A stretch of 64,000 bases of DNA from an uncultured Chlamydiales bacterium (GCA_963826935.1 CAWGYH010000005.1:704608-768607), one strand, 5' to 3'; positions 59,048 through 60,274 are shown, counted from the stretch's first letter. Made by a program: numbers and translations. The notes: a model not told the origin generated them from the sequence alone.

Positions 59048-59615
59048 GTTCACTGCCGCATAGGCAGCTTAGAAGAACGAGAGAGGCTTTTGTAGAAATT
59101 GTACAAAGTTCACTGCCGCATAGGCAGCTTAGAAGATGTAGGCTAATGGACCTTTTGTCATCTTAAGGTTCACTGCCGCATAGGCAGCTTAGAAGAATAA
59201 AGGTGCAGGAAATGGCGGAGTAACTTAGTTCACTGCCGCATAGGCAGCTTAGAAGATCAATAATATTTGCATCGCCCTGCTGCCTCAGTTCACTGCCGCA
59301 TAGGCAGCTTAGAAGACATAAATCACCTCCGAATAAACATTTTATTCGTTCACTGCCGCATAGGCAGCTTAGAAGACGAAAGCCTGGGCGAGATCAGGTT
59401 CATTCTTGTTCACTGCCGCATAGGCAGCTTAGAAGCAACTTCCACCTGAAGTTAGGACTTATTTTGAGTTCACTGCCGCATAGGCAGCTTAGAAGATAAC
59501 CAGCCGATACATGTCATTAACATAAATGTTCACTGCCGCATAGGCAGCTTAGAAGCAACTCAACAGTCCTGACAGGCTTGCGAATAAGTTCACTGCCGCA
59601 TAGGCAGCTTAGAAG
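59048..59615 (+). CRISPR. CRISPR array 1: 10 identical 28-bp type I-F repeats, 9 spacers of 32 bp
   Basis: The repeat GTTCACTGCCGCATAGGCAGCTTAGAAG starts at 59048 and recurs every 60 bp to 59588. The stem CTGCC/GGCAG matches the canonical I-F repeat GTTCACTGCCGTATAGGCAGCTAAGAAA. Confidence 0.97.
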
Positions 59616-59977
59616 TTCAGCGTAACTGAAAATGCCGAATGATGATTAGGAAAATTTTTGTGTATAAAAACTTACTCTAGATATTGTTACGACGGCCGGA
59701 TGCCTTTGGTTTGAGGGACCATTTGGGTTAAGTGGCGGAACAGCCTATGTAGACGTCGTACGCATACGCGAGCGGCTCATGCTAGAATACGACTGGGGCT
59801 GCGAAGCAACAAACCCGAAAAAGCGCATGGCAAACACTCAAAAAATCAAAACTGGCGCGCTTATTTCATTTAACTCAACCCCTTGACCTTAATGGCATCT
59901 TTGAACAGTTAAAGGAAAAGGGTCCTGGCTTGAAAAAAAAGGTCAAAAAAATGCAAACTGTGATACTGTGAGGCCCC

Positions 59978-60187
59978 GTTTTCTGCCGCGTAGGCAGCTT
60001 AGAAGTTGGGACATTATCAAAAGACCCTCAAGTTAATGGTTCACTGCCGTGTAGGCAGCTTAGAAGAAGTTCTTGATCAGGAACAGGATATATATACATG
60101 TCCACTGCCGCGTAGGCAGCTTAGAAGATACTTAGCAGTCACCTCGTCGTAATCGGAGTGTTCACTGCCGCATAGGCAGCTTAGAAG
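59978..60187 (+). CRISPR. CRISPR array 2: 4 repeats (3 variant, last one consensus), spacers 33/33/32 bp
   Basis: Repeats at 59978 (gttTTctgccgcGtaggcagcttagaag), 60039 (gttcactgccgTGtagg...), 60100 (gtCcactgccgcGtagg...) and 60160 (consensus). The hairpin stem is preserved in all four. Confidence 0.9.
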
Positions 60188-60274
60188 TTCAGCGTAACTG
60201 AAAATGCCAAATGATGATTAGGAAAATTGACGCGTTTAAAGAAAAAGGGTTCCTGGCTTGACAAGTAGTAGCCA

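Follow-up and report, generated by a model that had tools for sequence, protein, structure and literature searches.

The locus considered here lies in a stretch of 64,000 nucleotides (nt) from an uncultured Chlamydiales bacterium (GCA_963826935.1, CAWGYH010000005.1:704608-768607; hereafter the window) and raises the question of why two CRISPR arrays of type I-F2 end alike. The last repeat of the first array (array 1), together with the 41 nt behind it, is found a second time at the end of a shorter, degenerate array further downstream (array 2). The answer towards which we lean, with moderate confidence, is that one I-F2 array existed in two versions, whose ends are the two paralogous termini, and that array 2 is an older fragment placed behind array 1 by recombination. 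The duplicated terminus most likely represents a scar left by recombination at the border of a CRISPR-Cas island, with no evidence of a separate function.

Two arrays with a common terminus

The two copies of the terminus, each consisting of a 28-nt repeat and the trailer (T behind array 1, T' behind array 2), agree at 68 of 69 positions. Their sole mismatch is a G at position 59637 in the first copy, which corresponds to an A at position 60209 in the second. Similarity ends abruptly behind both copies, where TTTGTG follows the first and GACGCG the second. The recurrence with a single G/A difference and the immediate divergence had been pointed out in a preliminary description of this DNA, and both were recovered by alignment. 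The first 32 nt of the trailer occur at only two sites in the 64 kb, with a chance expectation of 0. Between the end of the second trailer and the right border of the island lie 9 nt.

Another sequence is duplicated in the same region. A 29-nt stretch between the arrays, termed M (TTAAAGGAAAAGGGTCCTGGCTTGAAAA), is an internal copy of the sequence at the island/host junction (M'), with 26 of 29 positions identical and one gap (score 41, compared to a maximum of 27 in 1000 shuffles). M' is located just downstream of the stop codon of a convergent gene for a DUF748 protein (60275-63265, minus strand). From left to right, repeat-T is followed by a unique stretch X1 (251 nt), by M and another 41 nt, and then by array 2 with repeat-T' at its end, 6 nt, M' and host DNA. 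The succession of repeat-T and M is thus found twice, with order and orientation unchanged; the two elements are 251 nt apart in the first case and 6 nt apart in the second, and the direct copies M and M' bracket array 2 and its trailer (298 nt). No third direct copy of M, as a dispersed motif might have left, was found in approximately 100 kb of the lineage. An att site flanking the whole island was considered for M and rejected, as there is no third direct copy and the only candidate at the left border, an inverted 16-mer, is marginal. The latter (51414-51429, about 50 nt inside the left border) matches 60239-60254 at 15 of 16 positions with one gap, and 7 of 300 shuffles score as high.

Downstream of position 59048, 14 copies of the 28-nt repeat GTTCACTGCCGCATAGGCAGCTTAGAAG were detected, none being expected by chance. 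They are type I-F repeats with a hairpin, are regularly spaced, enclose unique spacers of about 32 nt and lie near cas6f, and were classified as CRISPR arrays on this basis. The repeat period is 60 nt in array 1 and 61, 61 and 60 nt in array 2. The array-2 repeats starting at 59978, 60039, 60100 and 60160 deviate from GTTCACTGCCGCATAGGCAGCTTAGAAG at three, two, two and no positions, respectively. A loop change (A13>G) is common to all three non-terminal repeats, each of which has private changes in addition, and the terminal repeat at 60160 has the array-1 sequence and retains the ancestral loop base. The 5-bp hairpin CTGCC/GGCAG is kept in every variant repeat (-8.0 to -8.6 kcal/mol, as calculated by folding). 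With the Rfam family CRISPR-DR4 (RF01317; gathering score 35 bits), the array-1 repeats and the terminal repeat of array 2 reached 45.7 bits, and the variant repeats 42.4, 36.5 and 34.7 bits, one of them just below the threshold. The gap of 362 nt between the arrays, the spacers of 33, 33 and 32 nt compared to a uniform 32 nt in array 1, and the preserved stems had all been described correctly before. Because three variant repeats with shared and private changes stand against ten identical ones, array 2 appears to be older than array 1, or unconstrained. Decay comparable to that of array 2 is seen in a related locus (L002), in which three distal repeats (7491-7640) degenerate stepwise, and the array of another relative (L015) ends in an ordinary degenerate terminal repeat. 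A further relative (L010) carries a lone degenerate repeat (10594-10621) right after cas6f, 169 nt ahead of its array.

The best match between a spacer of array 1 and one of array 2 covers 15 of 32 positions, which is inside the null range, and all spacers are mutually unrelated. None of the spacers recurs in related arrays, even in those of L013 and L014 with their identical repeat. A BLAST search of the 13 distinct spacers and the trailer against phage and plasmid records gave no match, and no self-target for trailer or spacers was found within the window. The spacers of array 1 (59076-59587) begin with A in seven and with C in two of nine cases, and the trailer and the first spacer of array 2 both start with TT. 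The first-base pattern of the spacers may reflect the acquisition or protospacer-adjacent motif (PAM) register of the system.

The leader of array 1, which fills the 320 nt from the end of cas6f to the first repeat, has several blocks in common with the leaders of related I-F2 loci (11 loci aligned). The 140 nt upstream of position 59978 could not be aligned to the leaders of 11 related loci, and array 2 is not preceded by AT-rich DNA: the GC content upstream of it is 0.41-0.46, compared to 0.26 in the array-1 leader. A promoter-like site was not found upstream of array 2 either. Judged by its sequence, array 2 has the appearance of a distal array fragment that is old and has no leader.

It is very unlikely that the second terminus is an assembly artefact, in which a single terminus, or two strain variants of a mixed sample, were wrongly placed in tandem. 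The shared unit of 69 nt is shorter than ordinary reads, and the junctions between trailer and X1 and between X1, M and array 2 consist of unique sequence that an assembler cannot invent. Although repeat-rich DNA is easily misassembled, the repeats of array 2 all differ from each other, which makes their assembly unambiguous. The G/A difference could be a strain polymorphism; however, contigs assembled from short reads (run ERR10755938, k=31), the encoded proteins of which are identical to those of the window, behave as predicted if both variants are real. One of them extends from the DUF748 gene through the second trailer and ends exactly at the last 31-mer containing the A variant (60179-60209), which supports two trailer variants because the de Bruijn graph must branch there. 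The other one stops at the first repeat of array 1, a position that, in our own reading of the repeat and its flanks, also fits branching of the graph. As such contigs break at repeats, they leave the linkage of the two termini unproven.

Table 1. Features of the CRISPR-Cas island and its right border (positions counted from the first letter of the window)
Feature	Position	Strand	Basis
Terminus copy 1: last repeat of array 1 and 41-nt trailer T (G at 59637)	59588..59656	+	direct repeat search and alignment
Terminus copy 2: repeat and trailer T' (A at 60209)	60160..60228	+	repeat alignment, short-read contig, island border
Array 1: 10 identical 28-nt repeats GTTCACTGCCGCATAGGCAGCTTAGAAG, nine 32-nt spacers	59048..59615	+	repeat search, Rfam
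Array 2: three degenerate repeats and a perfect terminal repeat; spacers of 33, 33 and 32 nt	59978..60187	+	repeat alignment, Rfam, folding
M: copy of the island/host junction sequence (29 nt) inside the island (TTAAAGGAAAAGGGTCCTGGCTTGAAAA)	59908..59936	+	alignment to 60235-60264
M': junction sequence, conserved from 60238 onward in island-less relatives	60235..60264	+	blastn against relatives
X1: unique 251-nt stretch, host-like GC content of 0.458	59657..59907		no leader, homologous open reading frame, RNA family or unusual fold
41 bases directly upstream of array 2	59937..59977		no leader resemblance
Array-1 leader, GC content 0.26, promoter-like site at 58854-58881	58728..59047	+	homology to related I-F2 leaders
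Strain-specific CRISPR-Cas island, 8871 bp, GC content 0.377 compared to 0.46 in the flanks	51367..60237		blastn against L022 and L012
IS481-family fragments, left island end	51528..52123		homology searches
96-aa open reading frame with helix-turn-helix only, within IS481-family fragments	51899-52189		homology searches
Cas2-domain remnant of cas2-3, frameshifted, residues 55-108	53329..53474	+	tblastn, Cas2 domain of L015
Cas3fv, HD nuclease and helicase, without N-terminal Cas2 domain	53475..56105	+	alignment to Cas2-3 of L015, PADLOC
Cas7fv	56086..57081	+	NCBIfam NF040577 (E 3e-140), PADLOC
Cas5fv	57091..58140	+	Pfam PF20158 (E 7e-62), PADLOC Cas5fv (E 4e-142)
Cas6f (Csy4) endoribonuclease	58137..58727	+	profile matches, PADLOC

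Origin of the duplicated terminus

In the reading preferred here, array 2 would be a leaderless fragment derived from the distal (trailer) end of another, older version of this array. A single event, either an illegitimate or unequal recombination or else an insertion, would have put this fragment behind array 1, and the 29-nt direct repeat M/M' would be the footprint of the placing event. Both arrays would carry the same repeat and trailer because they descended from the same ancestral array end, which gene conversion may have refreshed. It is established that arrays conserve their trailer ends and that misaligned repeats give rise to duplications and deletions (PMC8047081; PMC4524480); a trailer end common to otherwise different arrays is the usual outcome of CRISPR evolution. 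The locus resembles known arrays rearranged by duplication or deletion of spacer blocks or by recombination with one another in that the leader-distal, oldest end is the common part of arrays with different leader ends, short repeats seed the misalignment and the duplication comes without a new function (PMC8047081; PMC4524480). It differs from them in that the shared unit includes 41 non-repeat bases along with a separate 29-nt copy of the junction, that the two arrays stand in tandem in one genome instead of in two strains, and that at least one non-homologous junction is required.

The preliminary description had offered two explanations, the joining of two arrays of different age by recombination at the terminal repeat and the insertion or duplication of a 572-bp block at the array end. 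From the former, the different age of the arrays and the rearrangement were retained, while the terminal repeat alone cannot account for the copying of 41 non-repeat bases. The latter did not hold, since no more than 69 nt and 29 nt are shared; a plain tandem duplication of 572 bp was thus discarded, X1, the 41-nt stretch and all spacers being single-copy.

Several properties of the trailer were compared to those of a spacer and of a genuine trailer. Its first 32 nt have the length of a spacer. By eye, no remnant of a lost repeat was recognised behind this unit, copy 2 agreeing with the repeat at about 8 of 28 positions, which is chance level, and copy 1 showing no resemblance. The trailer has no exact match in IMG/VR or JGI metagenome contigs and no counterpart among the spacers of related arrays. 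Within the window it has no match besides its own two copies at up to three mismatches, and no seed match of at least eight positions. A spacer with a known target was consequently rejected, as no protospacer was found in viral, metagenomic, phage or plasmid collections or in the window. Local alignment to the array ends of six related loci was no better than with shuffled sequences. A family-conserved trailer was rejected as well; an alignment made by eye, to the degenerate repeat at the array end of L015, had failed the shuffle test. The secondary structure of the trailer showed nothing notable.

The DNA between the arrays was similarly uninformative. A stop-free frame of 72 aa gave no match in Pfam, NCBIfam or a collection of 5.8 billion proteins, and two small open reading frames looked up for the short-read contig spanning the region were without match, too. 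The region belongs to no Rfam family even at E = 5, its fold is not unusual (z = -0.58 for the 362 nt), and no match was obtained with phages or plasmids. A leader, a gene remnant and an RNA were all rejected for this region, for which there was no leader alignment, protein match, Rfam family or unusual fold. The 41 nt in front of array 2 (59937-59977) could represent filler or else a spacer that was cut and kept its 3' part.

The terminus is less diverged than the other duplicated sequences. One of 69 positions differs between the two copies of repeat and trailer, compared to 10 of 113 in M and the array-2 repeats (Fisher p = 0.054; about 0.05-0.08). This may mean that the 28-nt repeat seeded a gene conversion afterwards. 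A number of points weigh against the derivation of both termini from two versions of one array: this divergence contrast is only borderline significant, at least one non-homologous junction must be assumed, and no source was found for X1 (251 nt, where the second copy has 6 nt) and the 41 nt upstream of array 2. The trailer, furthermore, may be either a spacer or a genuine trailer. Finally, no other genome carrying the island, including any intermediate state, was found in the searched collections.

Two other courses of events are improbable. In one of them, the terminal repeat, trailer and junction would have been copied early, when Cas1 and Cas2-3 were present, and each copy would have grown its own spacers; the upstream repeat of array 2 would have mutated in its loop (A>G) and been copied into all later repeats. 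The DNA upstream of array 2 is, however, without the conserved I-F2 leader blocks that are normally required for polarised spacer integration. X1 remains unaccounted for, and the supposedly younger repeats of array 2 have more private mutations than the repeat-plus-trailer unit, which should be the oldest. What such early copying would explain is the polarised pattern of addition, with an ancestral terminal repeat and a derived G shared by the three repeats upstream of it, and the 33-nt spacers resemble products of imprecise acquisition. Collapse to a single repeat followed by repopulation is documented for type I-F arrays of Legionella (PMC8047081). All-identical repeats are expected when an array was rebuilt from a single surviving repeat, and repeat polymorphisms record the history of an array. 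The terminal repeat of array 1, identical to the rest, is in this respect like the collapsed and repopulated arrays of Legionella pneumophila (Deecker and Ensminger 2020, cited after PMC8047081). The difference is that here such a collapse would be hypothetical; no adaptation genes are found in the window, and no other strain with the island was found for comparison.

The other course, which we also consider doubtful, starts from two unrelated, pre-existing arrays that received a recent short patch by gene conversion or templated repair. After a break at one array end, the strand would have invaded the 28-nt repeat of the other array, and the repeat and 41 bases would have been copied. The left edge of identity coincides with the repeat, the only homology available, and the patch is short and near-identical (1 of 69) within surroundings that are approximately 9% diverged or unrelated, although this contrast is itself borderline (p about 0.05-0.08). 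In array 2, the terminal repeat has the array-1 sequence, in contrast to the three repeats before it, as such copying would predict. The patch would, however, require a non-homologous end-join on its far side, and it leaves the occurrence of M and M' in the same order unexplained, which the placing of an older array fragment behind array 1 would include.

Transcription and possible functions

As no terminator-like site was found between the arrays, a single pre-CRISPR RNA starting from the promoter in the array-1 leader would read through into array 2. Cas6f could still cut the variant hairpins, by which three old CRISPR RNAs (crRNAs) would be released. The trailer units have no downstream repeat and would not undergo normal maturation; the unit after array 1 would hold a 'spacer' of 362 nt. 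Complexes of type I-Fv tolerate altered crRNA lengths (PMC4937334). Even given this tolerance, neither a 'spacer' as long as 362 nt nor a unit that lacks the 3' hairpin is a normal guide.

A regulatory role has only a slight probability. In this case, array 2 or the repeat-plus-trailer unit would be retained as the source of crRNA-like RNAs, by which the I-F2 complex would be directed to partly matching sequences of its own locus, as in autoregulation or toxin control by CreA/CreR. Degenerate mini-arrays with intact hairpins, such as array 2, are a hallmark of CreA/CreR elements (bioRxiv 10.1101/2023.03.03.530964; 10.1101/2023.03.10.532045), and a type I-F example of CreA has been described (10.64898/2026.06.02.729485). 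Array 2 is like these elements in being short, in its degenerate repeats that keep the Cas6 hairpin and in its position beside the cas operon. It differs in having four repeats and full-length spacers of 32-33 nt, compared to 20-26 nt in the I-F examples of CreA, and in that no promoter target was found.

The second spacer of array 2 (60067-60099) matches the minus strand of cas6f at 58443-58477, next to a 5'-CC PAM (58475). The spacer pairs from position 1 to 5 and from 7 to 11, but no further; the mismatched positions, 6 and 12, are among those ignored by type I complexes. Approximately 0.015 matches with a PAM and a seed of 10 positions are expected in the island. It is nevertheless hardly to be expected that this spacer guides Cas7fv, Cas5fv and Cas6f to their own operon and thereby tunes or guards cas expression, the nearly invariant repeat-plus-trailer unit being kept as the end of the functional transcript. 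The site lies inside the cas6f reading frame and not in a promoter, pairing ends early, and the match is a post hoc one out of many tests that were possible. Though similar in form to a CreA/CreR target, it is probably due to chance. For the trailer, the window contains no seed match, and no small toxin cassette was recognised, no dedicated search for one having been made.

A homing guide of a CRISPR-associated transposon (CAST) of type I-F3 was rejected: Cas3 is present and apparently intact, no tns genes are found, and there is no target beside the island end. The other open reading frames of the island encode the IS481 helix-turn-helix fragment and an AbiU2-like HEPN protein, and the gene set of a CAST (tnsA/B/C and tniQ without cas3) is not present. 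Nor does the trailer match any DNA outside the island end in the window at up to three mismatches, as the terminal spacer of a CAST would.

The CRISPR-Cas island and its host

The island was delimited by comparison with two island-less relatives, L012 (Logan ERR11523662) and L022 (a 37-kb contig of ENA ERZ25039491), both reached via the DUF748 protein. They are colinear with the window at 97.6-98.1% nucleotide identity (blastn) up to position 51366 and from position 60238 on, and carry a segment of 1862 bp with a gene for 549 aa instead of the island. The island was most likely acquired horizontally.

The effector genes cas7fv, cas5fv and cas6f are contiguous (56086-58727), without cas8f or a gene for a small subunit, as is characteristic of type I-F2 (I-Fv); matches of the effector genes in NCBIfam, Pfam and PADLOC range from E 1e-40 to 1e-175. 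Relatives of Cas6f are at most 65% identical in metagenomes and at most 50% in genomes of GTDB, and none was found in viral contigs. No relatives of Cas5fv and Cas6f with more than 90% identity were found among 15 billion proteins, the clusters at 90% being single-member. Cas3fv spans positions 107-945 of the 951 positions of the PADLOC profile and is 70% identical to residues 104-967 of the Cas2-3 protein of L015. The match to the Cas2 remnant extends to position 53489 and overlaps the start of cas3.

An adaptation module consisting of cas1 and a fused cas2-3 gene was not found in the window, where a tblastn search with Cas1 gave no match. Both cas1 and cas2-3 are present in the relatives L015 and L016, and in related metagenomic loci, the Cas6f proteins of which are 58-65% identical, cas2-3 encodes 970 aa. 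The expected site of cas1 is occupied by the gene for the AbiU2-like HEPN protein and the IS481 fragments. Since the window contains no cas1 and the Cas2 domain has been reduced to a frameshifted stump, neither array would be able to gain spacers now, unless cas1 lies outside the window. With the adaptation genes gone, only recombination and decay would therefore still change the arrays. The IS481 fragments at the left island end suggest insertion sequences as a possible cause of the loss of cas1 and cas2. A full IS481-family element (38786-40469) is 99.7% identical to an element of L022 that is sited elsewhere, and is adjoined by the gene for an RNA-guided transposase of the IS110 family (40607-41995). 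The AbiU2-like HEPN protein (52548-53135; Pfam PF18734, E 8e-12), encoded directly upstream of the cas2 stump, has no match in PADLOC. Its gene is possibly an abortive-infection gene in place of cas1.

The type I-F2 genes of Shewanella putrefaciens CN-32 encode Cas1, Cas2-3, Cas7fv, Cas5fv and Cas6f (PMC4937334). The island shares with this system the effectors Cas7fv, Cas5fv and Cas6f without a large or small subunit, the class of 28-nt hairpin repeats, the 32-nt spacers and the position of the array directly downstream of cas6f (PMC4937334). In contrast to CN-32, there is no cas1 in the window, the Cas2 stump is frameshifted, a second, degenerate array is present, and the host is apparently chlamydia-like.

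Judged by its protein sequences, the host is probably a chlamydia-like bacterium. Its CTP synthase is 87% identical to that of a metagenome-assembled genome (MAG) labelled Verrucomicrobia and 68-70% identical to those of MAGs labelled Chlamydiia, Chlamydiales and Parachlamydiales, and the best named match of the DUF748 protein is a Chlamydiales MAG. The genes kdsB and pyrG are adjacent (33948-36304). Between positions 1 and 47000, most large open reading frames are without a match in NCBIfam; among those with a match are ankyrin-repeat and Ser/Thr-kinase-like proteins. This gene content is consistent with an amoeba-associated intracellular bacterium. In a survey of 2025, CRISPR-Cas was present in only one of 437 Chlamydiota genomes and was of type I-E (PMC12669027).

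The locus is another case of the reshuffling of arrays by recombination after acquisition had stopped, and the mechanism is an ordinary one. With a fresh and a decaying array in one locus, it offers a dated-looking pair. Array termini can carry flanking non-repeat DNA, even that of an island/host junction, which calls for caution with software that reconstructs array history from repeats and spacers only. More notable than the duplicated terminus is a by-product of this analysis, namely an I-F2 island in a probable chlamydial genome.

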